Assembly (NCBI GenBank): GCA_964584335.1 | Contig: CAZOZN010000001.1 | Location: 293,351 to 357,350, forward strand | DNA: 64,000 nt | Direction: 5' to 3' | Source of the DNA: an uncultured archaeon | GTDB lineage: Archaea > Aenigmatarchaeota > Aenigmatarchaeia > PWEA01 > JAGHBM01 | Shown: positions 12,188-61,625 of the stretch, piece after piece | Layout of the letters: each line of letters opens with the position of its first letter | How positions within the stretch are numbered: the stretch's first letter is position 1 | Notes under the pieces: model-generated | Told to the model about the DNA's origin: nothing | Database searches by the model: none | Seen by the model: the letters and a program-made list of their open reading frames with translations, nothing else | Made by a program: the position numbers and the translations under genes

Positions 12188-12256
12188 ATGTTTTTTTCAG
12201 GTAAAAACTTTTATAAGCAAGATAAACTTATAATAGGATTACGGGGGGTGTTTTAA
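12188..12256 (+). CDS. 22-codon upstream ORF (possible leader peptide) ending in TAATG overlap with the peroxiredoxin start
   Basis: Own translation: [33 protein letters not shown] 5 nt upstream, the same consensus as bona fide genes here. Its stop shares one base with the prx ATG. Confidence 0.3.
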
Positions 12257-12921
12257 TGGAAGAAGAAAAAAATTCTATGCCTTTAATAGGTGACGATTTT
12301 CCCAAGATTACTGTTCATACCACTCACGGGAGAATAAATTTACCCGATGATTACAAAGGCAAGTGGTTCGTTTTGTTCAGTCATCCTGGTGATTTTACGC
12401 CTGTATGCACTACTGAATTCGTGGCTTTTCAGAAAAGATTTGACAAGTTCAAAAAGCTAAACACAGAACTGATAGGTCTTAGCATAGACCAGGTTCACAG
12501 CCACATGAAATGGACCGAATGGATAGAAGAAAAGATGGATGTAAAAATAAAGTTTCCCATAATAGCAGATGCTATGGGTAACTTAGCAAAAAAACTTGGC
12601 ATGATAAGCCCATTTAAGGGTTCTAATACTGTCAGGGCAGTTTTTGTAGTAGACTCTAACGGCAAGTTTCGTGCCATATTGTATTATCCCCAGGAACTGG
12701 GAAGAAACATGGATGAAGTGCTAAGGATAGTACAGGCAATGCAAATTTCAGACGAAAATAAAGTTGCAATGCCGGCAAACTGGCCCAAAAATGAAATATT
12801 GGGCGACGAGGTAATAGTACCGCCTGCTTCTGATGAGGAAACCGCTAAAAAGAGGATGGAAGAAGACAAGAAAGGAAGTATAAAATGTTTTGATTGGTGG
12901 TTGTGCCACAAAAAACTTTAA
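12256..12921 (+). CDS. peroxiredoxin (archaeal Prx6-like thiol peroxidase)
   Basis: [11 protein letters not shown] peroxidatic Cys motif. C-terminal CFDWWLCHK Cys pair typical of archaeal Prx. Confidence 0.9.
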
Positions 12922-12939
12922 AATTAAGGGGTGAAAAAA

Positions 12940-13227
12940 ATGCTTTCAAAGATACCTATAGACTTGAAAAACATAAAAAAAGAGGACTTAGACAAGGAAA
13001 TACTAAGAGCCGGTATAATAGCAGAATATGATGCTATAAACCTCTACGAGCAGATGGCAGCTCTTGCACAGGACGAAAACATAAAAAAAGTTATGTTGGA
13101 TGTCGCCAAGGAAGAAAAGGAGCATGTAGGTGAATTTCAGACACTTCTCCTAAAAAGAGATAAAGAGCTTGGAGAAGAAATGGAAGAAGGAAAAGAAGAG
13201 GTAGAAGAATTAACAGGAGGTGAATAA
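12940..13227 (+). CDS. small ferritin-like (EncFtn/rubrerythrin-related) protein
   Basis: ~95 aa two-helix protein with [13 protein letters not shown] ... EEKEHVGEF (ExxH metal-ligand pattern). Start moved to the ATG behind AAGGGGTGA. Confidence 0.6.
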
Positions 13228-13813
13228 TCTGGAGGAAACAATAAAAAATCTGACAAAAGCCTTTATAGGCGAAAGCCAGGCCAGAAACAGATACACAATA
13301 TATTCAAAAATAGCGAAAAAAGAAGGATTTGAACAGATATCTGCAGTTTTTAACGAGACCGCGGAACAGGAAAGAGAGCATGCCAAATGGCTTTTTAGGA
13401 TGATAAATGACTTAAAGAAAAAGAGCGATAAGGAATGGAATCCTGTGGAAGTTACTGCAGACTCTCCCAACACGTTTGGCTGCACATCAGAAAATCTTAA
13501 AGCAGCCATAGACGGCGAGAACTATGAGCACACTGAAATGTATCCCGAGTTTGCAGACACAGCTGAAAAAGAAGGTTTTCCAGAAATAGCTAAAAGACTT
13601 CGCTCAATAGCCAAAGCTGAAAGCCATCACGAGCAGAGATATGCAAAGCTTTTAAAGGAAGTAGAAAACGATACTGTTTTCAAGAAAGAGAAAAAAATCT
13701 ATTGGGTATGTAGAAAATGTGGATATATACACGAAGGAGAGGAACCGCCTGAAACTTGTCCTTCTTGCAGTCACCCAAAAGCATATTTCCAAAGACAGTG
13801 TGAAGAATACTAA
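13220..13813 (+). CDS. rbr: rubrerythrin
   Basis: [39 protein letters not shown] diiron helices plus C-terminal WVCRKCG..(11)..CPSC rubredoxin-like domain. No ATG at the 5' end, so a GTG or CTG start and the exact start is uncertain. Confidence 0.9.
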
Positions 13814-13825
13814 CTGGGGGATAAA

Positions 13826-14383
13826 TTGAAAGACAGCAAACAAAAAATGCAGGTCGTTCTTGCGACCTCTTTTCTTTTTTTTATTATATTTATAATAATG
13901 ATATTAGGAGGTTTTTTAGACATGAAGGGAATAGTTACAATGGAAACCAATATGGGAACAATGAAGTTCCAATTGGAAATGGAGAAGGCACCGGTCACTA
14001 GCCAGAACTTCATAAAACTTGCAGAAGACGGTTTTTACGACGGACTAAAGTTCCACAGAGTTATAGAGGGTTTTATGATACAGGGAGGTTGTCCAAATGG
14101 TGATGGTACAGGAGGGCCTGGTTATTATATTGAGGACGAATTTCATGAAGAACTAAAACATGACAGTATAGGTATTTTGTCTATGGCCAACAGCGGACCC
14201 GACACCGGAGGCAGCCAGTTTTTCATAACTCTGGATAAGACACCGTGGCTTAACGGAAAACACGCAATATTTGGTCATATTATTGAAGGCAAAGATGTTT
14301 TAAAGAAAATAGGCTCAGTTGAAACTGACTCAACGGACAGACCCATGGAAGATGTTATAATAAAAAAAGTTACTGTTGTGTAA
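13826..14383 (+). CDS. cyclophilin-type peptidyl-prolyl isomerase with N-terminal membrane anchor
   Basis: [43 protein letters not shown]-terminal [19 protein letters not shown] hydrophobic segment. Start (TTG 13826 or ATG 13847) is uncertain. Confidence 0.9.
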
Positions 14384-14414
14384 CTGGTCAATATATTTTA
14401 TGGAGGTGGAAAAA

Positions 14415-14792
14415 ATGACTGAATTAAGGCAAGTTTACAGATGCAACATATGCGGCAACATAGTGGAAGTGCTTCATGAGGGCATCGGAGAGCTAGTTTG
14501 CTGTGGCAAACCTATGGAATTGTTAAAACCAAAGAAAGAGGACCAAGGAAGTGAAAAGCATGTTCCTGTAATAGATAAATCAGAAGATGCAGTAAGGGTA
14601 AAGGTAGGTGAAGTTCCTCACCCAATGGAAGAAAATCATTTCATAGAATGGATAGAAATTATAGCCGATGGAAAGGTTTATAGAGAGAGATTAGAACCTG
14701 GAGAAGAGCCTGATGCTGTGTTTTACCTAAAGGCCGAAAACGTCAGAGCCAGAATTTATTGTAACGTGCATGGTTTTTGGGAATCCAAGTAA
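14415..14792 (+). CDS. dfx: desulfoferrodoxin (2Fe superoxide reductase)
   Basis: N-terminal desulforedoxin-like [20 protein letters not shown] and C-terminal SOR domain (EKHVPV...[12 protein letters not shown]...CNVHGFW). GGAGGTGG SD before the ATG at 14415. Confidence 0.85.
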
Positions 14793-14838
14793 GACAGAAA
14801 AGATTTATAGAATTAATTACATATTTATTCAGGTATGC

Positions 14839-15144
14839 ATGGTTCTGTTAGAAGTTATGCTAAATTTTTTTAGAAAGCGTTTTACAACGAAGTACCCAAA
14901 ATCAGAACCCAAACTTCCAAAGAATTTCAGAGGACCTGTAAAGTGGAATAAAAAAACTTGTATATTTTGTGGTGCATGCGCGAGAAATTGTCCAGCCTAT
15001 GCTATAAAAATAGATAAAGAAAAAAAGGAATTGGTTGTGGACCCTTACAAATGCATATCCTGCGGTATCTGTCAGGAAAAATGTCCGACCAAACCAAAGT
15101 CTATCTACCTGACGGAAAAACTTCACGTAAGCAAATCTGAGTGA
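14839..15144 (+). CDS. 2x[4Fe-4S] ferredoxin-domain protein
   Basis: Two CxxCxxCxxxCP motifs (CIFCGACARNCP, CISCGICQEKCP). The N-terminal TKYP..FRG segment resembles NuoI/HycF-type subunits. Confidence 0.75.
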   Translation: MVLLEVMLNFFRKRFTTKYPKSEPKLPKNFRGPVKWNKKTCIFCGACARNCPAYAIKIDKEKKELVVDPYKCISCGICQEKCPTKPKSIYLTEKLHVSKSE

Positions 15145-15599
15145 TTCAAATGTTACATGAGAAATCGGCAGGAGCTGTTATTTTCAAGAAGGAAAACAAT
15201 AAAATTAATTATCTTTTCTTGGAATACGAACACAAATCAGAGTACCTGGGTTTTCCCAGAGGAGGTATAGAGGATGGGGAAAGTGAAAAACAGGCTGCAG
15301 AAAGAGAAGTAAAAGAAGAGACGGGATTGGATGTGGAATTTATAGACGGATTCAAGGAAACTGTGCACTGGTTTTACAGAAGAGACGGGGAAACAGTTAG
15401 CAAGAGGTTGGTTCTTTTTCTTGCCGAAGCAAAATCCGATAGGGTTCTAATATCAAGTGAGCATGTGGGTTACAAATGGATGACTTTCGAGAAGGCTATA
15501 GATGCATTAAGTTTTGAAAACTCAAGAAAAGTACTTAGAAAGGCACAGGATTTTCTTTTCAATATAGAAAGAAATAGCTTGAGAAGGTTTTCAAAATGA
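15141..15599 (+). CDS. NUDIX hydrolase
   Basis: Nudix box GFPRGGIEDGESEKQAAEREVKEETGL. Confidence 0.8.
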   Translation: MIQMLHEKSAGAVIFKKENNKINYLFLEYEHKSEYLGFPRGGIEDGESEKQAAEREVKEETGLDVEFIDGFKETVHWFYRRDGETVSKRLVLFLAEAKSDRVLISSEHVGYKWMTFEKAIDALSFENSRKVLRKAQDFLFNIERNSLRRFSK

Positions 15600-25762: not shown

Positions 25763-25807
25763 CACTTAGTCTAATTAAAAAGACTTAAAAAATAGGGGTG
25801 AAGAAGA

Positions 25808-26323
25808 ATGGAAATATCCGATGAGCTCAATAATAAGATTTTGGAAGCTGTAGAAGCAGCAAGAGCGACAGGTTATATTAGAAAAGGTACTAATGAAGCT
25901 ACCAAAGCGGTAGAGAGAGGAGCAGCAGAGCTGGTTGTAATAGCAAAAGATGTTGATCCGCCGGAAATTGTAATGCATTTGCCTCCGCTTTGTGAAGAGA
26001 AAAATATACCTTGTGTTTATACTAAAAGCAAAGATGACCTTGGTAGGGCTGCTGGTATTGATGTAAGATGTGCTGCTATAGCCATAGCAAAATCTGGAGA
26101 AGCAAAAAAGATAATAGAAGAAATAACAGGCAAAGGAAAGAAAGAAGAAACAAAAGAGAAAAAAGAAGCCAAGAAAGAGAAGCCAAAAAAAGAAGAAAAG
26201 AAAGAGCCTAAAAAAGAGGAAAAAGAAAAAAAGACTGAAAAGAAGAAAGAAGAAAAGAAACCAGCGAAGAAAGAAGAAACCAAGGAAGAAAAAAAGAAAG
26301 AAAATACTTCTGAAGCTAAATGA
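25808..26323 (+). CDS. rpl7ae: ribosomal protein L7Ae (C/D and H/ACA kink-turn binder) with ~60-aa Lys/Glu-rich C-terminal tail
   Basis: [43 protein letters not shown] core. The tail starts after ..IEEITGK. Confidence 0.9.
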
Positions 26324-26335
26324 TAGGTGAATTAG

Positions 26336-26575
26336 ATGGCAAGAAAGAAAGCCAAAGTTAGTCATAAGAGTGAATTTGAAGATGCAGTTTCCGCTGAAAT
26401 AGTAAAAGTTATAAGAAGAGGCGGTGTTAAGGGAGTTACTGCAGTCAGATGTAAGGTTCTTGACGGAAGAGACAAGGGGAAAATACTACAAAGAAACGTT
26501 ATGGGGCCGGTTAGAAAAGGAGACGTGTTAATGTTAAGAGAGACAGAAATGGAAAGCTCCGGAAGCTTCGGGTGA
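26336..26575 (+). CDS. rps28e: ribosomal protein S28e
   Basis: [52 protein letters not shown], the typical S28e OB-fold sequence. Confidence 0.9.
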
Positions 26576-34585: not shown

Positions 34586-35212
34586 ATGTTTAAATTTATT
34601 ATACCGTTAAAAGAGGGGAAATCTACTCAGATTGAGAAAGACGCACCATCGCTTACGGGAATGAAGATGGGAGAAAAATTTGACGGTTCAATTATAGGAC
34701 TTACAGACTATACATTGCAGATATCAGGAGGTAGTGATAAGGAAGGTTTTCCTATGAGAAAAGATTTGCCCGGAACAGGTAGAAAAAGAGCACTTCTTGT
34801 TGGCGGAGTAGGCTGTAAAGGAAGGAAAAAGGGAATTAGAATAAGAAAGACCGTAAGAGGCAACAGAATAGGAGAAGATATATCCCAAATAAACATAAAA
34901 ATAGTAGAAAAAGGCAAAAAGAGTGTTGAAGAACTTCTTGGCTTGGAGAAAGAGGAGAAGCCTAAAGAAGAGCCGGACAAAAAAGAATCTAAAGAAGAAG
35001 AAAAGAAACCAGAGAAGGAAGAAAAACCTGAAGAGAAGAAAGAGGAAAAACCTGAAAAAGAGCCTGAGGAAAAGAAAGAAGAACCAAAAAAAGAGGAAAA
35101 GAAAGAGAAAAAGGATAAAGAAAAAGAAGAACCAAAAAAGGAAACTTCCAAAGAGGACAAGAAAACAGAAAAGAAAGAAGAACCCAAGGAAGAAAAGGAT
35201 GAGAAAAAGTAG
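34586..35212 (+). CDS. rps6e: ribosomal protein S6e with ~85-aa Lys/Glu/Pro-rich C-terminal tail
   Basis: LQISGGSDKEGFPMRKDLPGTGRKRALL...GIRIRKTVRGN core (S6e). The tail starts after ..VEELLGL. Confidence 0.85.
   Translation: MFKFIIPLKEGKSTQIEKDAPSLTGMKMGEKFDGSIIGLTDYTLQISGGSDKEGFPMRKDLPGTGRKRALLVGGVGCKGRKKGIRIRKTVRGNRIGEDISQINIKIVEKGKKSVEELLGLEKEEKPKEEPDKKESKEEEKKPEKEEKPEEKKEEKPEKEPEEKKEEPKKEEKKEKKDKEKEEPKKETSKEDKKTEKKEEPKEEKDEKK
34955..35181 (+). repeat. KE/P-tail cassette, copy 1 (inside rps6e)
   Basis: Hand alignment to 44475-44698 gives 4 G/A substitutions plus one 3-nt indel over 227/224 nt. Confidence 0.9.
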
Positions 35213-35284
35213 CTAATTCTAGCTTAACGGCTTCTTTATGCAAACTTATAAAAGCCTTAATACATTAATCTTTAAAGTGTTTTT

Positions 35285-36499
35285 ATGAAAAAAGACGGCG
35301 GAGTAAATATAGGTTTGTTCGGTCACGTAGACCATGGAAAAACAACAATAACCGAAGCACTCACGGGAAAGTGGGCTGATGCACACAGCGAGGAAATGAA
35401 AAGAGGCATAACAATAAGGCTCGGTTATGCAGAAACTACTATTTACAAATGCCCGAAATGCGAAGAACCTAACTGTTATTCTACAACTAAAAAATGCCCC
35501 ACATGTTTTGGGGATACAAAGCCTCTCAGGACAATTTCTTTTGTCGACGCGCCTGGACATAACGCACTAATGGCAACAGTATTATCCGGAGCTTCTCTTA
35601 TAGACGGTGCTTTGCTCATAATATCAGCAGATGAAAAATGCCCTCAACCACAAACAGCCGAACACCTGACTACACTGGACATAGTAGGAATAAAAAATAT
35701 AATAATAGTACAGAATAAGATAGACAGGGTAAGCAAGGATGAGGTAATTCAGAACTACAAACAGATTAAAAAATTCGTAAAAGGGACCGTAGCTGAAAAT
35801 TCTCCAATAATTCCAATATCGGCACTGCAAAAAATAAACATAGACGCTTTGCTCAAGTCGATAGAAGAAAACATACCGACACCGGAAAGAGACCTAAAGG
35901 CCGACCCAAAGATGTTCATAGCAAGAAGTTTTGATGTCAATAAACCCGGTAGCGAGATAGAAAAAATTATTGGAGGTATAATGGGCGGATCTCTTACCAA
36001 GGGAAAACTTTCAATAGGAGATAAAATAGAAATAAAACCAGGAGTAAAGATAAAAGACAGTTACATGCCTCTTAAAACAGAAATAACTACACTACAAAAA
36101 TTTGGAAAAAAGCTAAAAGAAGTCGGCCCCGGAGGGCTTATAGCTGTAGGCACAAAGCTAGACCCTTCACTTACAAAAAGCGACTTTCTGACAGGAAATA
36201 TTGCCGGTAAAGAAGGAAAGCTGCCCCCGAACTGGGAAAAATTGACCCTTGAAGTTAATCTACTAAAAAATGTAGTAGGTACTGAAGAGAAAATGGAAGT
36301 AAAAAACATAAATACAAACGAGCCGTTAATGATAACTTCAGGAACAGGAAGAACCGTAGGCCTGGTTACTTCGGGAAGAAAAAAGGAAATTGACTTAAAC
36401 TTAAAGGCTCCGATTTGCGCTGAAAAGGATGATAAAATAGCACTCTTCAGGCAAGTTGGTGGTAGATGGAGACTTATAGGATACGGAATAATAAAATAA
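35285..36499 (+). CDS. eif2g: translation initiation factor aIF2 gamma subunit
   Basis: NIGLFGHVDHGKTT, zinc ribbon CPKC..(17)..CPTC, DAPGH, QNKID, EF-Tu-like domains II/III. Confidence 0.9.
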   Translation: MKKDGGVNIGLFGHVDHGKTTITEALTGKWADAHSEEMKRGITIRLGYAETTIYKCPKCEEPNCYSTTKKCPTCFGDTKPLRTISFVDAPGHNALMATVLSGASLIDGALLIISADEKCPQPQTAEHLTTLDIVGIKNIIIVQNKIDRVSKDEVIQNYKQIKKFVKGTVAENSPIIPISALQKINIDALLKSIEENIPTPERDLKADPKMFIARSFDVNKPGSEIEKIIGGIMGGSLTKGKLSIGDKIEIKPGVKIKDSYMPLKTEITTLQKFGKKLKEVGPGGLIAVGTKLDPSLTKSDFLTGNIAGKEGKLPPNWEKLTLEVNLLKNVVGTEEKMEVKNINTNEPLMITSGTGRTVGLVTSGRKKEIDLNLKAPICAEKDDKIALFRQVGGRWRLIGYGIIK

Positions 36500-43410: not shown

Positions 43411-43983
43411 ATGTTTAAGATAATAGAAGTAGAAGACTCTGTAAGAGTGCCACCAGAGAAATTTGGCAAAGACCTTGAAGAGTCTATAGGAGAAAGTGTA
43501 CAGGAAAAATTTGAAGGTGTTTTCACTCCAGACCTTGGAATAGTCTTGAACCTAGACGGAATAAAAGAAGTAGGAGAAGGTAAACTTATACCGGAAGATG
43601 GTGGAGTTTACTATTCAGCCAAGTTCAAACTTCTTGTATACATACCAGAGGAACATGAAATAACAATAGGAGAGGTAGTTGATATAACAGAATTTGGTGC
43701 TTTTGTTAGGATAGGTCCTGTTGATGCAATGACACACATATCCCAAATAATGAATGATTATGTTAGTTATGATAAGAAAAATTCTACCTTAGTGGGTAGA
43801 GACAACAAAAAAACTCTGAAAGAAGGAGACATAGTGAGAGCCAGAGTCATATCAGTTTCATTCACAAAGAACAACAGAGTAGGATTGACAATGAGACAGA
43901 ATCGTTTGGGTGCTCTAAAATGGATGGAAGACGAAAAGAAAAAAGAAGATCAGAAACAAAACAAAGAAGAAAATAAAAAATAG
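43411..43983 (+). CDS. rpoE: RNA polymerase subunit Rpo7 (E') with S1 domain and short KE-rich tail
   Basis: MFKIIEVEDSVRVPPEKFG N-terminal domain. S1 fold GEVVDITEFGAFVRIGPVDAMTHISQ. Ends in EDEKKKEDQKQNKEENKK. Confidence 0.85.
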   Translation: MFKIIEVEDSVRVPPEKFGKDLEESIGESVQEKFEGVFTPDLGIVLNLDGIKEVGEGKLIPEDGGVYYSAKFKLLVYIPEEHEITIGEVVDITEFGAFVRIGPVDAMTHISQIMNDYVSYDKKNSTLVGRDNKKTLKEGDIVRARVISVSFTKNNRVGLTMRQNRLGALKWMEDEKKKEDQKQNKEENKK

Positions 43984-43991
43984 GTGATATT

Positions 43992-44183
43992 ATGGTCAGA
44001 GAAAAAGTATGTTCGGAATGCAAGAGATTTGTAAGGGGTGATATGTGTCCCGCATGCAAGACTTCAAAATTAACCAGAAACTGGAAGGGGTCTGCCATTA
44101 TAATAGACCCGGAAAGTGAAATAGCAGAAACACTTGGAATAGAAGCTCCCGGAAGATATGCAATTTCTATATCTAAATTTTAG
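43992..44183 (+). CDS. spt4: transcription elongation factor Spt4 (RpoE'')
   Basis: CSECKRF..(6)..CPACK zinc ribbon, then WKGSAIIIDPESEIAETLGI. Confidence 0.8.
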   Translation: MVREKVCSECKRFVRGDMCPACKTSKLTRNWKGSAIIIDPESEIAETLGIEAPGRYAISISKF

Positions 44184-44192
44184 GTGATCAAA

Positions 44193-44711
44193 ATGAAAAT
44201 AAAAATTACAGACACTAAGAAAAATCCTTTGATGAAAAGAGAAGAAATTAAAGGAATTATAGAACACGAAGGAATGCCAACTCCTTCAAGAGCATCATTG
44301 CAAAAATACATATCAAAGGAAAATAAAATAGAGCAAAAACATGTCGACATAAGAAAGGTTTTCTCGGCTTCAGGAAGAGAGGACGCCAAGCTCATAGCAT
44401 ATATTTGGAAAGAAAAAGAGGTTCCTATATTAGCAGAAAAGAAATCCGAAGAGTCAAAGAAGGAAGAAACTAAAGAGAAGCCTAAAGAAGAGCCGGACAA
44501 AAAAGAATCTAAAGAAGAAAAGAAACCAGAAAAGGAAGAAAAACCTGAAGAGAAGAAAGAGGAAAAACCTGAAAAAGAGCCTGAAGAAAAGAAAGAAGAA
44601 CCAAAAAAAGAGGAAAAGAAAGAGAAAAAGAATAAAGAAAAAGAAGAACCAAAAAAAGAAACTTCCAAAGAGGACAAGAAAACAGAAAAGAAAGAAGACA
44701 AAAAGAAATAA
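44193..44711 (+). CDS. rps24e: ribosomal protein S24e with ~90-aa Lys/Glu/Pro-rich C-terminal tail
   Basis: NPLMKREEI...PTPSR..L......K......V.I.K....G......AYIW core. ATG at 44193 behind an AGGTGAT SD. Confidence 0.85.
   Translation: MKIKITDTKKNPLMKREEIKGIIEHEGMPTPSRASLQKYISKENKIEQKHVDIRKVFSASGREDAKLIAYIWKEKEVPILAEKKSEESKKEETKEKPKEEPDKKESKEEKKPEKEEKPEEKKEEKPEKEPEEKKEEPKKEEKKEKKNKEKEEPKKETSKEDKKTEKKEDKKK
44475..44698 (+). repeat. KE/P-tail cassette, copy 2 (inside rps24e)
   Basis: ~98% identical to 34955-35181 by hand alignment. Confidence 0.9.
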
Positions 44712-44737
44712 AAAATCTAAAACAATAGGTCTGTTTC

Positions 44738-45391
44738 ATGTATATCATAATAGTAGGTGCAGGTGGTATAGGGAAGAAGCTTGTGCAACTTGCTCTGAAA
44801 GACAAGAACAATGTTATTGTAGTAGAAAAAGAACAGGAAAAATGCGAAGAGCTGGCAAGGAAGCAGGATGTTATAATAATAAACGCTGATGCTACAAAAG
44901 AAGAAACACTAAAAGAGGCTGAAATTAAAAAAGCTGATGCCCTTATAGCCACGACCGAAGACGATTCAATAAATTTAATGATAGTTTCTCTGGCGAAAAA
45001 CATGAATGTGCCCATGCTTATTTCTGTGGTTAACAAAGAAGAAGCAAAACCTATGTTTGAGGAAAAGAAAGTTAATATAGTAAAAAATCCAGACGACCTA
45101 ATGGCCGAATATCTATACAAATCACTCAAACATCCAACTGTTGACGACTTCATGCACGTTGGTGAAAATGCAGAGATGTTTACACTCCCTCTCTCAATGA
45201 AATCAAAATTCTCCGGAAAAAGTATCAAAAAAATCAAACTTCCTAAAAAATGCCTTATAGTAGCAATAGAAAGGGAAAAGGAATTTATAATACCGACAAA
45301 CGAGGTAGAAATATATCCAGGAGACAAGATAACTATACTGGCACCTTCAAAACAAGTTGACAAAGTAGCAAAGTTACTGGCGGGCAATTAG
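44738..45391 (+). CDS. trkA: K+ uptake protein TrkA (RCK N+C domains)
   Basis: MYIIIVGAGGIGKKL Rossmann motif, ADALIATTEDD, C-terminal RCK-C. Confidence 0.85.
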   Translation: MYIIIVGAGGIGKKLVQLALKDKNNVIVVEKEQEKCEELARKQDVIIINADATKEETLKEAEIKKADALIATTEDDSINLMIVSLAKNMNVPMLISVVNKEEAKPMFEEKKVNIVKNPDDLMAEYLYKSLKHPTVDDFMHVGENAEMFTLPLSMKSKFSGKSIKKIKLPKKCLIVAIEREKEFIIPTNEVEIYPGDKITILAPSKQVDKVAKLLAGN

Positions 45392-45437
45392 ACTTCTATA
45401 TTCTTTTTTTAAAGTATAAAATAACTATTATTCAAAG

Positions 45438-46910
45438 GTGTGTTTATTGAGGGAAAGCATAAAAATAATATCAAGGGACCTTGGCTCTCTTCTTCTTGTT
45501 GGAGGAGTGCTATCAATTTTTACAATTATAATACCATTTATCTTTAACGAGCTTGATGCAATAACACCCCTATTAATGACTACGGGCGTTTTTTTTCTTT
45601 CGGGAGGGCTTCTTTATATATCTGGAAGAACAGAGGCTGAAACCAACTTCAAGAACGCAATGATAATAGCAGCTTTGGGTTGGCTTCTAATATCCGTTAT
45701 AGGTTCTATCCCGTTTCTGTATATGTCTGAATATGGAACAGGAGAAGGCATGGAACCTGTTGATGCTGTTTTTGAATCTTTTGCAGGATGGACTGGCACA
45801 GGCTTCAGTATGGTCTCAAACGAGGGAAAACTTCCTTACACATTACAGTTCTGGCGTTCCTTAATACAGTGGGTGGGTGGTGTTGGTGTTATAGTTCTCA
45901 CACTGGCTATACTCGCAAGACCCGGAACGGGTTCCTTTACCCTTTACAAATCGGAAGCGAGAGAGGAAAAAATGCACCCGTCAATACTTTCTACCGTTAA
46001 ATCGATATGGTGGATATTTATAATTTACACGATGCTTGGAATATCTCTTTTCTATATAACAGGCATGCCGCTTTGGGAATCAATAAATCATTGTATGACT
46101 GGTCTTTCTACGGGAGGATTCTCTATAACTGACGAAAGCATGACCTATTACGGCTTCTGGACACAAGCTGCTATAATGATTATGATGGTAATTGGTGCAA
46201 TAGCTTTCGCCGCACACCACAATCTTTTCAAGGGCAAGATTAGAAAGTTTTTTTCTGACCCCCAAGTGAAGGCACTAATCATATTGATAATATTCGGGGG
46301 CCTTTTACTATCAATCGTAAACTTCTTAACTCTTAACTACAGCAACTTCTTCGAGTCATTGAAAGATTCCATGTTTCAATACATATCCGCAATATCTTGC
46401 ACTGGTTTCTACTCTGCTAACATTTCTTCTTGGAGTGACACGGCAAAACTATTGCTATCAATGGCAATGATAGTAGGAGGTGCCGCAGGTTCTACTGCGG
46501 GTGGTATAAAACTATTCAGAATAATATTACTGACCAATGGTATAGTTTGGAAAACCAAACACGCAACATCTAGCCCGAGAAGAGTTTTCAGTCACAAGCT
46601 GGGCAACAAGTTTTTATCGGGGGATGAATACAAAAACGAGGTAAACGAATCAGCAATAATTTCGTTCCTATGGATAATATTTCTTTTTATCGGAATAGTT
46701 GCTTTTTCAATACTAATGCCAAAGCACGAACTAATAAACATTGTTTTTGAAATTTGCTCGGCACAAGGAAATGTTGGGTTATCCTCGGGAATAACAAAAA
46801 CCGCAATGCCGGATTTAGCAAAAATAATCATGATGTTTAATATGTGGATAGGAAGGCTGGAAATAATACCTGTTGTGGTTTTGATTAGGTCCTTACTCGG
46901 GAAAAAATAA
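45438..46910 (+). CDS. trkH: K+ transporter TrkH/KtrB family membrane subunit
   Basis: Polytopic, with repeated selectivity-filter-like motifs (GWTGTGFS, GLSTGGFS, CTGFYS, NVGLSSG). Confidence 0.85.
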   Translation: MCLLRESIKIISRDLGSLLLVGGVLSIFTIIIPFIFNELDAITPLLMTTGVFFLSGGLLYISGRTEAETNFKNAMIIAALGWLLISVIGSIPFLYMSEYGTGEGMEPVDAVFESFAGWTGTGFSMVSNEGKLPYTLQFWRSLIQWVGGVGVIVLTLAILARPGTGSFTLYKSEAREEKMHPSILSTVKSIWWIFIIYTMLGISLFYITGMPLWESINHCMTGLSTGGFSITDESMTYYGFWTQAAIMIMMVIGAIAFAAHHNLFKGKIRKFFSDPQVKALIILIIFGGLLLSIVNFLTLNYSNFFESLKDSMFQYISAISCTGFYSANISSWSDTAKLLLSMAMIVGGAAGSTAGGIKLFRIILLTNGIVWKTKHATSSPRRVFSHKLGNKFLSGDEYKNEVNESAIISFLWIIFLFIGIVAFSILMPKHELINIVFEICSAQGNVGLSSGITKTAMPDLAKIIMMFNMWIGRLEIIPVVVLIRSLLGKK

Positions 46911-51133: not shown

Positions 51134-51433
51134 ATGATAAAAGAAGATTTGGATAAAAGACTGGAAGAAATTGAAACAAAAATACAGGAACTAGAAGATA
51201 TGATACTTGACAACAAACTAAAAATAATGGAACTGCAAAATAAAAAACCCGAGGAAAAAGAAAATATAAGTCTTGGAAAACCTGCTGAAGAAAAAAAATC
51301 GGATAAGAAAGATGACAAGCCTATAAAGAAATTATTTAACATAAAAAAAATAGAAGAAGAGAAAAAAGGAGAAGAAGATGAACTTGGTCATAGGGCTAAA
51401 AAGATAAAAGACATGTTAAGGGATTTAAAATGA
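51134..51433 (+). CDS. charged coiled-coil protein (99 aa)
   Basis: Lys/Glu-rich helical ORF. ATGA overlap with the next gene. Confidence 0.45.
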   Translation: MIKEDLDKRLEEIETKIQELEDMILDNKLKIMELQNKKPEEKENISLGKPAEEKKSDKKDDKPIKKLFNIKKIEEEKKGEEDELGHRAKKIKDMLRDLK

Positions 51434-52704
51434 CTGACTTTAATGAAGACATAGCTGAAACAGTTAAGAGTACCGTAAAGGCGAATTTAGAAAGATGCGA
51501 AGAAAATTTTGTAAGAGATATGGAAAGTAGAATTGAAAATGATTTTAAGCAGAGGATTGAAAATCTGGAGACAAAGGTAGAAAAAGATGTAGAGGATTTT
51601 CTAATTAAAAAATTTGATACAATGTTTGACAGTTTTGCTGAAGATATCAAAAAACAAATCAGTTCCAAAAAAGTGGGAAAGAGCGAAGACGTAAAAAACA
51701 TAAAAGAAAGAATAAGAGAATTGATGGATATACAAGAAGAAATTATAGCAAAAATGCACCAAAAAAATAAAGAACCTTTAGAAGGAGATTTTAAAGAAAG
51801 ATTAAGCAATCTGACTTACTCCGTAAAGGCCAATACATTAGAAATAAGAAAAAACATATCAAAAATAGAAGAACTTAAAAAAATGAAAATAGAAGATAAG
51901 TTTTCAGATACAGAAGATTTTATAAACAGGTTCAATAATTTAAGCTATTCCGTCAAGGCAAATACGAGAGAAATGGAAGATATTGTATCTCAAATAGAAG
52001 AAATAAAGAGAATGAGAAACAATATGAATTTTTTTGATACGGAAGGATTTACAAACAAAATAAAAGACATTAGTTATTCTGTTGAAGCAAACACAAGAGA
52101 AATAAGAAGAGTTATATCAAATCTCGAAAACATAAAAGAAAATACATTAAACAGAATAAACGGAATAAACAATAACGTAGAAGATAATGTAGAAAATACA
52201 AAAAATATGTTCTCTAGAGTTGAAAAAGACTTAGATGAAATTAGAGAGAATATGAAAAAATTGGAGAAAAACAAAGAAGAAAGAGTAATACAAAAAGTAT
52301 TGCCGCCACCGCCTCAGGGATACAAGGAAGACATAGAGAAGGTCAAGAAAGAATTAGAAGAAAACAAGAAATCGCTCATGGACGAAATAAACAGAGTAAA
52401 CAAAAACATAAGCCCGTTGTTAAAAGGAAACAAAGAAGAAATTGAAAAGGAAATTAATGAAAAAATATCAAAAATCGAGCAAAAAATAGAGCCCATGATA
52501 AATGAAAAGATGAAGAAGTCTTATGAAGATATTGAAGAAAAGATAAGAGAAAATGAAAAAAATATAATCGAAAAAGAAAGGGATATCTTAGAAAAAATAT
52601 CATTAATTGAAAGTACCACTCAACCAAGCGAAAAAAGCATTATAGATAAATCAATAGAAGAAATAAGAGAAGAGTTTGAGAGGCTTAAAAAGAAAAAGAA
52701 TTAA
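51430..52704 (+). CDS. long coiled-coil protein with internal tandem repeats (424 aa)
   Basis: Almost entirely charged heptad-like sequence with three ~40-aa repeats containing (L/I)(T/S)YSV(K/E)ANT(L/R)E. Confidence 0.55.
   Translation: MTDFNEDIAETVKSTVKANLERCEENFVRDMESRIENDFKQRIENLETKVEKDVEDFLIKKFDTMFDSFAEDIKKQISSKKVGKSEDVKNIKERIRELMDIQEEIIAKMHQKNKEPLEGDFKERLSNLTYSVKANTLEIRKNISKIEELKKMKIEDKFSDTEDFINRFNNLSYSVKANTREMEDIVSQIEEIKRMRNNMNFFDTEGFTNKIKDISYSVEANTREIRRVISNLENIKENTLNRINGINNNVEDNVENTKNMFSRVEKDLDEIRENMKKLEKNKEERVIQKVLPPPPQGYKEDIEKVKKELEENKKSLMDEINRVNKNISPLLKGNKEEIEKEINEKISKIEQKIEPMINEKMKKSYEDIEEKIRENEKNIIEKERDILEKISLIESTTQPSEKSIIDKSIEEIREEFERLKKKKN
51784..52149 (+). repeat. three tandem ~40-aa protein repeats inside the coiled-coil gene
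   Basis: The units are GDFKERLSNLTYSVKANTLEIRKNISKIEELKKM / EDFINRFNNLSYSVKANTREMEDIVSQIEEIKRM / EGFTNKIKDISYSVEANTREIRRVISNLENIKEN. Confidence 0.7.
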
Positions 52705-59181: not shown

Positions 59182-60093
59182 ATGATAATAAAGACAGTTC
59201 TTGTGGTTGATGATAGTCAGGAGGTAAGAGAAACTATAAAACACGCCCTGAACAGGAACGGATTCAACACAATAACAGCCAAAAGCGGGGAAGAATGCCT
59301 CAGCAAGCTAAAAGAAATAAAACCTGACCTAATTTTAATCGATATTAAAATAAAAGACATCCCAATAAATGAAATAATTTCAAATTTAGACAACATAAAA
59401 ACAACCATACTTATCCCTAAAGAAACGGGAGAAGAAGAAAAAAAAGAGCTTGAGAAAAACGAAGATGTAATAGGATTTATAGAAAAACCATTCGACATAA
59501 ACAAGCTAATAGAAGAAGTAGAGAAAACAATGGAAAAAAAGGTGGCTCATGACATAATAGACGAGACGAAAATAAACCAAAAAGTACTTCTCTTTATACC
59601 AAATACGAACAAGATATCAAACATAAGCCTTGATATACTAAAACTGCTTACAATGTGGAAAAAACAAAAAATAATTTACATAACACTTCAAAAAAGCAGA
59701 GAAAGATTGATGGAAGTTTTTAATAGAGAAAATATAACAACGGAGAATATTTACTTTGTAGACTGTATAACAGGTTTTTTTAGGACACCGGAAGAAACTC
59801 AAAATACGAAATTTGTTTCTGCTCCGTATGAACTAGACAAAATAAGCGAATCAATAAAATATTTTATGGACAAAAACACTTTCATAATATTTGATTCATT
59901 GTCAACATTACTTGACTACGGATACTACGTTCCTGCTGGAATGGATAAAATATCAAAATTTATAAACAAGTTTTCTGAAAAGTTAAAAAAGACAGAAAGC
60001 AAGATACTTTTCCTTTCGAAGGAAGAAGACAAAAAAATGCTTTTGATAGAAGAATCAATACCAATATATGATAAAATACTTTATTGGAGGTAA
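59182..60093 (+). CDS. response-regulator receiver fused to a P-loop-less KaiC/RecA-like domain
   Basis: REC: VLVVDDSQEVRE...KPDLILIDIKIKD...GFIEKPF. C-terminal: IIYITLQKS...IYFVDCI...FIIFDSLSTLL (KaiC-like strand order), but no GxxxxGK(T/S). Confidence 0.65.
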   Translation: MIIKTVLVVDDSQEVRETIKHALNRNGFNTITAKSGEECLSKLKEIKPDLILIDIKIKDIPINEIISNLDNIKTTILIPKETGEEEKKELEKNEDVIGFIEKPFDINKLIEEVEKTMEKKVAHDIIDETKINQKVLLFIPNTNKISNISLDILKLLTMWKKQKIIYITLQKSRERLMEVFNRENITTENIYFVDCITGFFRTPEETQNTKFVSAPYELDKISESIKYFMDKNTFIIFDSLSTLLDYGYYVPAGMDKISKFINKFSEKLKKTESKILFLSKEEDKKMLLIEESIPIYDKILYWR

Positions 60094-60097
60094 AAAA

Positions 60098-60454
60098 ATG
60101 GACAAGACTATAATGATTGTGGATGACGAGCCTGATATAAGAAAGACTACAAGCACTGTTCTAGAAAAAAATGGATATAAAGTCGTTACAGCCAAAAACG
60201 GAGACGAGTGCCTTAAAAAACTAGAGAAAATAAGGCCTGACCTAATTTTAATGGATATAATGATGCCGGGAACTCCGGTAAAGGAAGTAGTTTCAAAAAT
60301 AGAAGACATAAAAATAGCTTTTCTGAGTGTTGTAAGAACATCCGAAGCCGAAAAAGAGAATCTCAAAAAAACAAAAAACATAGTTGATTTTATTCAGAAA
60401 CCTTTTGATATAAACGAGCTTGTAAAGAAAGTAGAAGAATTAACCAATGAATAA
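60098..60454 (+). CDS. single-domain response regulator (CheY-like)
   Basis: IMIVDDEPDIR, RPDLILMDIMMPG, FIQKPF. GGAGGT SD before the ATG at 60098. Confidence 0.8.
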   Translation: MDKTIMIVDDEPDIRKTTSTVLEKNGYKVVTAKNGDECLKKLEKIRPDLILMDIMMPGTPVKEVVSKIEDIKIAFLSVVRTSEAEKENLKKTKNIVDFIQKPFDINELVKKVEELTNE

Positions 60455-61625
60455 AGTAAAGAAGAGGAAAATCATGGTTAACGAAAAAAGAATATTAAAA
60501 GAGAAAAGATTTTTCTTATCCCAGTTCTCTTCAAGAATAGTAACCGCTTTCTTGGTCATAATAGTTTTGCTGACATTCTTTATGGGCTATATGTCTTACT
60601 TATACCTGAAGAACTTTCTTACAGAAACCATGTTAAACGGTTTCATAGCTCTTCAATTCGTGCTCCTTTTGTTTGTACTATTCAGCGTTACAATTTACGG
60701 CTTTTTCACTGTAAGAATAATGTCCAAGCCAATAAAACAGCTTTACTGGGCAAGCAAGAGGCTAAGAAAAGGGGACTTTAAAGCAAGAACTAAAATAAAA
60801 ACAAATGACGAACTCGAAGAAGTCGGAGAGACATTGAACAAAGCAATAAAGGCTTTGGGTAAAATGAATGAAGAACACAAGAAACTCGAAAAGGCAAAAA
60901 CAGAACTTCTTTCTATAAGCTCTCATGAGTTAAGAAGTCCCATGACTCCCATAAAAGCGCAGCTACAGATGATACTTGGCGGTTACTTTGGAAAATTGAA
61001 CAAGAAACAAAAAGAATCTCTGAACATCGTATTGAGGAATACAAAAAGGCTTGACTGTATAATAAAAGACTTCCTAGAAGTTTCCAGGATAGACGCTGCA
61101 AGATTAAAATTTAATTTCGTCAAAACAGACCTAAAAAAACATATAAAAAACGCAGTGAAGGAGGCAAAATGTTTCCAGCCAAAAAAGAAAATAAAAATAG
61201 TTACAAAAATAAGCAAGCTTCCAGAGGTAAAGATTGACCCAAACAGGATATCTCAAATATTGAGAAATCTGATAATAAACTCGGTAAAATTTTCACCCGA
61301 AAAAACCAAAATAACAATAGGCGCTAAAAAAGAAAAAAACATGATTAAGATATGGGTAAAGGACCAGGGTATAGGAATATCAAAAAAAGACCAAAAAAGA
61401 ATATTCGAGCCATTCTTCCAGGCAGAAAATACAATATACAGAAAATACAGCGGTGTCGGACTTGGGCTGTCGATATGCAAGGGTATAGTAGAATCACAGG
61501 GTGGAAAAATATGGGTGGAAAGTGAGCTGGGAAAGGGAAGTACTTTCTATTTTACAGTACCAATAAATCCCCCAAAGAAAACAAAACCGGTAAATTTTTC
61601 TGTGTCAAAAAAATCGGCTTTTTAA
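60447..61625 (+). CDS. sensor histidine kinase (2 TM, HAMP, HisKA, HATPase_c)
   Basis: HAMP-like IMSKPIKQLYWASKRLRKGDF. H-box SISSHELRSPMTPI, N-box LRNLIINSVKF, G-boxes DQGIGI / GVGLGLSICK. Confidence 0.85.
   Translation: MNKVKKRKIMVNEKRILKEKRFFLSQFSSRIVTAFLVIIVLLTFFMGYMSYLYLKNFLTETMLNGFIALQFVLLLFVLFSVTIYGFFTVRIMSKPIKQLYWASKRLRKGDFKARTKIKTNDELEEVGETLNKAIKALGKMNEEHKKLEKAKTELLSISSHELRSPMTPIKAQLQMILGGYFGKLNKKQKESLNIVLRNTKRLDCIIKDFLEVSRIDAARLKFNFVKTDLKKHIKNAVKEAKCFQPKKKIKIVTKISKLPEVKIDPNRISQILRNLIINSVKFSPEKTKITIGAKKEKNMIKIWVKDQGIGISKKDQKRIFEPFFQAENTIYRKYSGVGLGLSICKGIVESQGGKIWVESELGKGSTFYFTVPINPPKKTKPVNFSVSKKSAF

Follow-up and report, generated by a model that had tools for sequence, protein, structure and literature searches.

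A nearly identical tail tract in the S6e and S24e genes of an uncultured Aenigmatarchaeota archaeon, probably copied recently between pre-existing tails

Introduction

Low-complexity regions are frequent in ribosomal proteins, with archaeal S24e, S3, L10 and L12 as recurrent carriers; L12 heads the archaeal list, and Ntountoumi et al. (2019) report 13 such regions for archaeal S24e in 102 genera, with Ala, Glu and Lys as the dominant residues (PMC6821194). Most of the S24e regions are rich in Ala and Glu; the survey includes neither S6e nor L7Ae in its list and covers hardly any DPANN genomes. Archaeal eS6 has been described as a single domain without extensions (PMC9932298). The present analysis concerns a 64,000-nucleotide (nt) stretch of contig CAZOZN010000001.1 (assembly GCA_964584335.1, positions 293,351 to 357,350) from an uncultured archaeon of the Aenigmatarchaeota, referred to below as the window. 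In this stretch the ribosomal protein genes rps6e and rps24e both end in long tails rich in Lys, Glu and Pro (K/E/P), and the two tails share a tract of about 227 nt that is nearly identical at the DNA level. The survey (PMC6821194) is silent on the sharing of DNA between genes, and the tails described here differ from its regions in being K/E/P-rich, charge-balanced and 60–120 amino acids (aa) long.

Concerted evolution through gene conversion is well documented in prokaryotes, as in tuf genes and rRNA operons (PMC6053082). The locus resembles these cases in that copies within a genome are closer than orthologues, tract ends are sharp, and conversion is non-reciprocal and leaves the intervening essential genes in place. 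It differs in the nature of the partners: the known cases involve true paralogues, whereas S6e, S24e, L7Ae and the RNA polymerase subunit RpoE' are non-homologous and have in common only low-complexity tail DNA.

A further parallel is found in eukaryotes, where the KKE/D domains of Nop56, Nop58, Cbf5 and Rpa34 are lysine-rich, carry blocks of lysine doublets and target these factors to nascent rRNA; they are stated to be absent from archaeal small nucleolar ribonucleoproteins (snoRNPs; PMC11528048). The tails of the window share with them the C-terminal position, the disorder and the K/E(D) composition on unrelated proteins of the rRNA machinery, an RNA polymerase subunit included: their fraction of charged residues (FCR) is 0.8–0.85, the predicted local distance difference test (pLDDT) score is <60, and no secondary structure is predicted. 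In both systems electrostatics appear to be selected over sequence. The archaeal tails differ in being net-neutral, Pro-containing and hyper-mixed in charge; net positive charge with lysine-doublet blocks was not found among them, only the L7Ae tail being mildly basic (+0.16), and the likeness is compositional only. L7Ae is both a ribosomal protein and a core protein of the archaeal C/D and H/ACA small ribonucleoproteins. Low-complexity regions in ribosomal proteins and gene conversion are already known, and what is new is the documentation, from three genomes, of tail tracts exchanged between genes for ribosomal proteins and RNA polymerase that are not homologous, together with tail physics that are conserved across the lineage.

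Results and discussion

The shared tract of the S6e and S24e tails

The S6e tail (34946..35209, plus strand, residues 121–208) contains copy A of the tract at 34955..35181 (227 nt, 75.7 codons), and the S24e tail (44433..44708, plus strand, residues 81–172) contains copy B at 44475..44698, also on the plus strand (224 nt). Alignment with MAFFT and BLASTN gives 96.9% identity over 227 columns. A script-based comparison found four substitutions, each of which has a G in S6e where S24e has an A: GAG/GAA at 35014/44531 (E/E) and at 35068/44585 (E/E), GAT/AAT at 35114/44631 (D/N), and AAG/AAA at 35140/44657 (K/K). Three of the four are synonymous third-position changes. The sole indel measures 3 nt and corresponds to a GAA (Glu) codon present in the S6e copy only. 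The tract begins in frame 0 of its own gene at both loci, and is divided by the differences into runs of exact identity of 37, 19, 53, 45, 25 and 41 nt. An earlier note on this DNA, made from the letters alone, had given the tract coordinates, the encoded peptide, the number and nature of the differences and the common reading frame, all of which proved correct; the BLASTN comparison that it proposed recovers the tract at the identity and length quoted above. The uniform direction of the four substitutions might be due to AT-biased mutation of one copy or to a bias in the conversion; with n = 4 the pattern is not significant.

The local alignment score of the two tails is 206, compared with 23.9 ± 3.5 (maximum 37–40) after 300 codon shuffles of both tails, which served as the null for the tail comparisons. 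The resulting z score of 47–52 places the pair about 50 standard deviations (SD) above the controls. The window contains exactly two occurrences of a 23-mer taken from the tract, with none expected. Similarity is lost abruptly at both ends, the in-register identity 10–40 nt outside the tract being only 20–50%. The alignment, the shuffle score and the 23-mer count together indicate that the identity is due neither to chance nor to convergence, and a 97% identical tract with abrupt edges, set in otherwise dissimilar sequence of the same genome, has the form expected of gene conversion.

Turnover between genomes and sharing within genomes

A 44.9-kb scaffold from ENA (L027/L029, the syntenic relative) is collinear with the window through LysRS, L7Ae, S28e, aIF5B, S6e, eIF2-gamma, GlmS, RpoE', Spt4, S24e and TrkA/TrkH. 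All four tails are present there at similar lengths. The S24e tail comprises 95 aa (92 aa in the window) and that of S6e 81 aa (88 aa in the window); L7Ae, with 200 aa, ends in a tail of about 92 aa, and the RpoE' tail (gene at L027 9057-9743) measures 56 aa against 18 aa in the window. The RpoE' tails show that such extensions are not confined to ribosomal proteins. Despite the collinearity, the orthologous tails of the window and the relative cannot be aligned, the codon-shuffle z being −0.1 for S24e, 0.0 for L7Ae and 3.6 for S6e. Five S24e variants (P0127-P0131) have near-identical cores and tails that differ by in-frame indels.

Similarity is found instead between different genes of one genome, from which all of the highest tail scores derive. 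After the S6e/S24e pair of the window, the strongest are S6e/L7Ae in Aenigmatarchaeota AUK200 (L003; a 49-nt exact run, z 18) and RpoE'/S24e in the syntenic relative (L027; 47 nt at 91%, z 11), followed by L7Ae/S6e in the window (about 79% over 132 nt by BLASTN, z 4.6–5.1) and L7Ae/S6e in the syntenic relative (L029; 49 nt at 86%, z about 4.6). The partner genes are co-oriented in every case. As a reference, the background similarity between unrelated tails amounts to about 75–85% over 50–130 nt. Tail copies within a genome are therefore closer than orthologues between related genomes, which is the pattern of concerted evolution. A further possible case is an Iainarchaeum contig (L026) with an S24e-like tail that is about 80% identical over about 200 nt to the tail of a truncated upstream gene; both tails (L026 1-270 and 5341-5823) are tandem (K/E/T/A) repeats, which confounds any sharing between them.

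Comparison of S6e and S24e lengths and of tail synteny across related genomes, as suggested in the earlier note, shows that long tails are common and that the syntenic relative has both. The same note had named ancient, diverged tails in relatives, with an identity unsupported by raw data, as grounds for giving up the case. The tails are indeed old and cannot be aligned, but the identity of the tract is real in the assembled sequence.

Origin of the shared tract

Recent copying of the tract between pre-existing tails is the likely explanation of the S6e/S24e identity. By this account S6e, S24e, L7Ae and, to a lesser extent, RpoE' would be proteins of RNA machines that end in disordered, near-neutral, charge-alternating Lys/Glu/Pro tails, and the T-poor, polypurine, low-complexity DNA of these tails would evolve fast by in-frame slippage. 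Occasional non-allelic gene conversion, or template switching during replication, would move sequence between the tails of different genes in one genome, and a tract of about 227 nt would have been copied from one existing tail into the other, in frame, with the cores untouched. The divergence of the copies (1.8% substitutions and one codon indel) makes the copying very recent relative to the core identity of 55–70% with the nearest relatives. Conversion or template switching is the presumed mechanism of recombination, as fast turnover combined with within-genome sharing between changing partners is the signature of sporadic events of either kind, and polypurine tail DNA is presumably prone to slippage, to stalling of replication forks and to copying by microhomology. 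If the two copies in the window recombined by crossover, 9.5 kb including eIF2-gamma and GlmS would be lost, so only non-crossover products should survive. Since the relatives have tails of similar length, the event would have replaced or homogenised part of an existing tail, and no new module was made. The earlier proposal of a recent duplication or ongoing conversion of a tail cassette therefore stands as regards recent intragenomic copying, but not as regards a newly added cassette, as tails pre-exist in relatives. Weak hints point to S6e as the donor. No DNA resembling the tract above the low-complexity background was found in the relatives compared, a tract k-mer had no match in viral contigs, and a protein search with the tract alone returned no matches, probably owing to composition filtering.

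Several points weigh against this account. The tract is only marginally closer to the S6e tails of relatives (z 0.7–2.6) than to their S24e tails (z −0.3–2.7), and a third copy elsewhere on the contig of about 384 kb, beyond the 64 kb of the window, is possible as the true donor. The core–tail junctions of both genes are known from the assembled sequence alone, the S6e of this organism is known from one contig only, an exact look-up of its S6e protein matched no record, two tract k-mers had no matches in JGI metagenome contigs, and the tract was found in no other assembly. The homologue sets were collected with full-length queries that included the tails and so are biased toward tail-bearing proteins, with a core-only correction for S6e only. 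The fine charge alternation of the tails could be a by-product of GAA/AAG short-unit slippage rather than of selection, and their function is read from sequence and predicted structure.

Four other explanations were weighed. Independent convergence, in which the same short units slipped in parallel in both tails under a common codon bias, has a negligible probability. Both tails are built of GAA/AAG/AAA/CCN units with weak 12–24-nt periodicities according to Tandem Repeats Finder, and unrelated tails do reach the background similarity quoted above; yet a score about 50 SD over the codon shuffles effectively refutes it, rare codons (CCG GAC, TCT, ACT TCC, ACA) follow one another in identical order, and the L7Ae tail of the same genome stays at the background level. 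An assembly artefact, in which one tail would be a chimeric de Bruijn path through the tail of the other gene, perhaps via a strain variant, is improbable. A strain-variant path would account for the four single-nucleotide differences and the indel, both tails are extreme low-complexity polypurine DNA, and the artefact would also fit the single contig for S6e, the lack of the tract in any independent assembly and the failure of a protein database search to return the S24e protein. However, with five differences between them and no exact run above 53 nt, the copies form distinct k-mer paths at the usual final k, and a chimera could itself arise only if the true tails matched exactly over long runs at both junctions. 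The reading frame is kept at both junctions, each gene has its own 3' end and stop codon, and native residues of each gene flank the tract on both sides. More diverged sharing also occurs between other gene pairs in two independent assemblies, and chimeras would not yield diverged copies.

De novo duplicative insertion, by which a near-tailless S6e or S24e gained a 227-nt module by a non-homologous or mobile route, is unlikely. It would agree with the abrupt loss of similarity at both tract ends, where there is no extended flanking homology, and with the length of the window S24e (172 aa), which lies near the upper end of its closest relatives (121–175 aa). Both orthologues in the syntenic relative, however, are already tailed at almost equal length, and in S6e as in S24e the tract has native K/E residues on either side. 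No target-site duplications or terminal inverted repeats were found at the tract ends, no transposase or integrase was recognised among the open reading frame (ORF) translations of 33–46.5 kb by inspection rather than by family search, and the two copies are the only ones in the window, with none in viral contigs. A mobile-element or insertion-cassette origin was rejected in view of the missing junction repeats and the count of two copies in 64 kb. Identity maintained by selection, with tails that must match to bind a common partner or each other and with adaptive homogenisation, is quite unlikely; gene conversion could still be the mechanism, and the parallel would be eukaryotic KKE/D domains with their homo- and heterotypic interactions. 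In yeast, the KKE/D tails of snoRNPs and Pol I contact one another and nascent rRNA (PMC11528048), and the carriers L7Ae, S6e, S24e and RpoE' all meet nascent rRNA or RNA early, eS6 and eS24 being early binders in the published assembly table (PMC9932298). Three of the four substitutions are synonymous, which points the same way, but for G/A transitions in K/E codons this proportion lacks significance (estimated p about 0.1). The S6e and S24e tails of the syntenic relative share nothing (z −0.8), the sharing pairs vary from genome to genome, so that no pairing is constant, self-association is at odds with the very low kappa values (next section), and the L7Ae tail of the window is not homogenised.

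The tails as disordered polyampholytes

The AlphaFold2 model of S6e, built on a 40-sequence alignment, has a core with pLDDT of 88–97, followed by residues 121–208 at 43–59 that are devoid of secondary structure. The S6e tail has an FCR of 0.85, a net charge per residue (NCPR) of −0.06 and a charge-patterning parameter kappa of 0.013; the corresponding values for S24e are 0.82, +0.01 and 0.014. The NCPR of the L7Ae tail is +0.16, and kappa ranges from 0.013 to 0.03 across the three tails. For S6e and S24e no composition-preserving shuffle (n = 300) reached a kappa as low as these, and for L7Ae only about 1% did. The description of the tails as polyampholytes in the earlier note is borne out. 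Charged residues make up about 80–85% of the tails, with a Pro every 4–17 residues. A single alpha-helix (SAH) of the ER/K type was considered and rejected given this spacing of Pro and the absence of helix from residues 121–208 of the model.

Homologous tails average about 35% K/R, 36% E/D and 11% P with an NCPR near 0, and in 91–100% of those of at least 40 aa the charges are better mixed than in their own shuffles. Tail composition and charge patterning are thus conserved across homologues, and tail sequence is not. In the kappa framework of Das and Pappu, well-mixed polyampholyte chains are said to be expanded and to self-associate poorly.

Distribution of the tails

The closest S6e homologues come from Aenigmarchaeota/Aenigmatarchaeota or are labelled simply 'archaeon'; they measure 150–250 aa and end in K/E/P-rich tails. 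The S24e homologues span 101–202 aa, most of the closest falling between 120 and 175 aa, and likewise have tails. K/E/P tails of 40–120 aa on both proteins are widespread in Aenigmatarchaeota-like DPANN archaea. When the S6e core alone was used as a query against 1.84 billion cluster representatives, a charged tail of at least 30 aa was present in 59 of the 150 nearest representatives, and one of at least 50 aa in 40. Some S6e tails are plain tandem repeats such as (PKEEAKEx)n. Those of one group of Aenigmatarchaeota-type genomes (L006-L009) are a distinct variety of charged tail that contains His, for example ...KEHKEEKKEEK...PKEEHAHK.... In the GTDB species representatives, S6e has a long tail in Aenigmatarchaeota and in unclassified archaeal bins; in Nanoarchaeota, Micrarchaeota, Thermoplasmatota and one Methanotrichaceae genome S6e ends in a K/E stub of 5–20 residues. 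No S6e closer than 60% identity to that of the window was found among these representatives. At three further loci that were inspected the tail is on S6e only, and L7Ae is tail-less in one of them (L034).

In solved archaeal ribosomes eS6 has 105–151 aa and eS24 has 96–128 aa, one 214-aa eS6 chain matching only C-terminally. The statement in the earlier note that archaeal S6e and S24e normally end close to their cores thus applies to the solved structures, but not to this lineage, where long tails are widespread. Long K/E/P tails are an old trait of the lineage and only the shared sequence is recent. Textbooks present archaeal eS6 and eS24 as compact proteins of a single domain, with which every solved archaeal ribosome agrees; here is a large uncultured lineage in which both have disordered polyampholyte tails of 60–120 residues, as do L7Ae and Rpo7 (RpoE'). 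A full-text literature search found no description of K/E/P tails on S6e, S24e or L7Ae of DPANN archaea, nor of tail exchange.

Possible function

The tails may serve as solvated, non-sticky spacers ('entropic bristles') where the surfaces of the ribosome and RNA polymerase face the solvent, a proposal that we make tentatively and at somewhat less than even confidence. Selection would then act on length, charge balance and mixing and not on sequence, which would account for the harmless transfer of a tail segment from one protein to another. The predicted disorder, the charge balance, the hyper-mixing and a composition that is conserved while the sequence varies favour spacers over sequence-specific binders or blocky condensate-forming domains. 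A more specific proposal, that S6e, S24e, L7Ae and Rpo7 carry an exchangeable K/E/P module homogenised because the tails work together, is doubtful; if true, the module might, for example, concentrate machinery at nascent rRNA and would represent an archaeal counterpart of the eukaryotic KKE/D domains.

Two other systems invite comparison. The eukaryotic extensions of eS6 and eS24 belong to the same pair of proteins and are likewise C-terminal. The eS6 extension, however, is a basic ordered helix with phosphorylation sites and not a neutral disordered chain. A phmmer search does extend the S6e alignment into this extension; the S6e tail alone has no PDB match, and homology was rejected as a composition effect. 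The hinge of the P-stalk protein (aP1/L12) is also flexible, charged and of low complexity, and it too is part of a ribosomal protein. It is short and ends in a conserved factor-binding peptide, whereas comparison of homologues revealed no conserved terminal motif in the S6e and S24e tails.

The exchange of tail DNA between non-homologous essential genes is an unusual form of concerted evolution and implies that the tails are functionally interchangeable. The lineage offers a natural system for asking what disordered tails do on the ribosome surface, and shows how ribosomal-protein extensions, a hallmark of the eukaryotic ribosome, can arise and spread.

Genes of the window and their tail DNA

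The rps6e gene (34586..35212, plus strand) encodes 208 aa, an S6e core followed by the 88-aa K/E/P tail. Residues 11–118 match Pfam PF01092 (E 7e-34, 116.7 bits, cut-off 26), and the best PDB match is the archaeal eS6 9o17_AH (E 9e-27). The GGSDxxGFPMR motif is present, with G48, G49, D51, G54, P56 and M57 invariant in the alignment, and a GGTG Shine-Dalgarno-like motif precedes the ATG. The eIF2-gamma gene (35285-36499) follows, an order that is kept at L001, L029 and L034. The rps24e gene (44193..44711, plus strand) encodes 172 aa, comprising the S24e core and the tail of about 92 aa, with a match to Pfam PF01282 over residues 4–95 (E 1e-8, 35.7 bits, cut-off 24.5). The ATG at 44193 is favoured over the GTG at 44184 because S24e homologues begin MKIKI.... 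The gene belongs to a conserved rpoE'-spt4-rps24e cluster with the same order in L027, L028, L030 and L032; this cluster and the rps6e–eIF2-gamma pair are classical archaeal arrangements. Directly 3' of rps24e, in place of rps27ae, are TrkA/TrkH potassium-uptake genes (44711-46910). The S24e–TrkA/TrkH order recurs in the closest relatives (L027, L028, L030), and the canonical S24e–S27ae pair in the more distant L032.

The third long tail belongs to L7Ae (rpl7ae, 25808..26323, plus strand, 171 aa; Pfam PF01248 at residues 10–102). This 63-aa K/E-rich, mildly basic segment (26132-26320) lies outside the identical tract. RpoE' (Rpo7; gene 43411-43983, plus strand; Pfam SHS2_Rpb7-N and S1) ends in a short K/E/D/Q tail of 18 aa (43927..43980). 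A six-frame scan of the window detected exactly these three long K/E-rich tails, and none on S28e, L24e, L21e, Spt4 or RpoF. The window has a GC content of 35% and also encodes S28e, L24e, L21e and RpoF. An RNA-based explanation of the tract was rejected, as neither tRNAs nor Rfam families were detected in the window.

The coding strand of the S6e tail is 86% purine with 4% T and that of the S24e tail 85% purine, the overall range being 85–87% purine with 4% T. Owing to this scarcity of T, the other frames and the antisense strand are open across the tails, and long spurious ORFs arise at 34923-35216 (plus strand) and at 34708-35187, 44180-44701 and 25775-26365 (minus strand). The +1 frame of the S6e tail would give a K/R-rich polycation of 97 aa. 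Such ORFs may mislead gene callers, and T-poor tail tracts are a hazard for assembly, gene calling and alignment in DPANN genomes. A protein database search returned the S6e protein of the window and did not return its S24e protein.

Elsewhere in the window, an oxidative-stress cluster typical of anaerobes (12256-15599) encodes a 1-Cys peroxiredoxin, two rubrerythrin/ferritin-like proteins, cyclophilin, desulfoferrodoxin and a NUDIX hydrolase. Two adjacent ORFs at 51134-52704 (99 and 424 aa) have a K/E/I/N heptad-like composition and probably form coiled coils, distinct from the Pro-containing tails; only a weak, sub-threshold apolipoprotein-like Pfam match was obtained for them. A direct repeat of 127 nt (59275-59401 and 60188-60314) shows 73% identity, or 80% over 71 nt by BLASTN, its first copy lying within a response-regulator gene (59182-60093) and its second just 3' of that gene, adjoining a histidine kinase gene (60447-61625).

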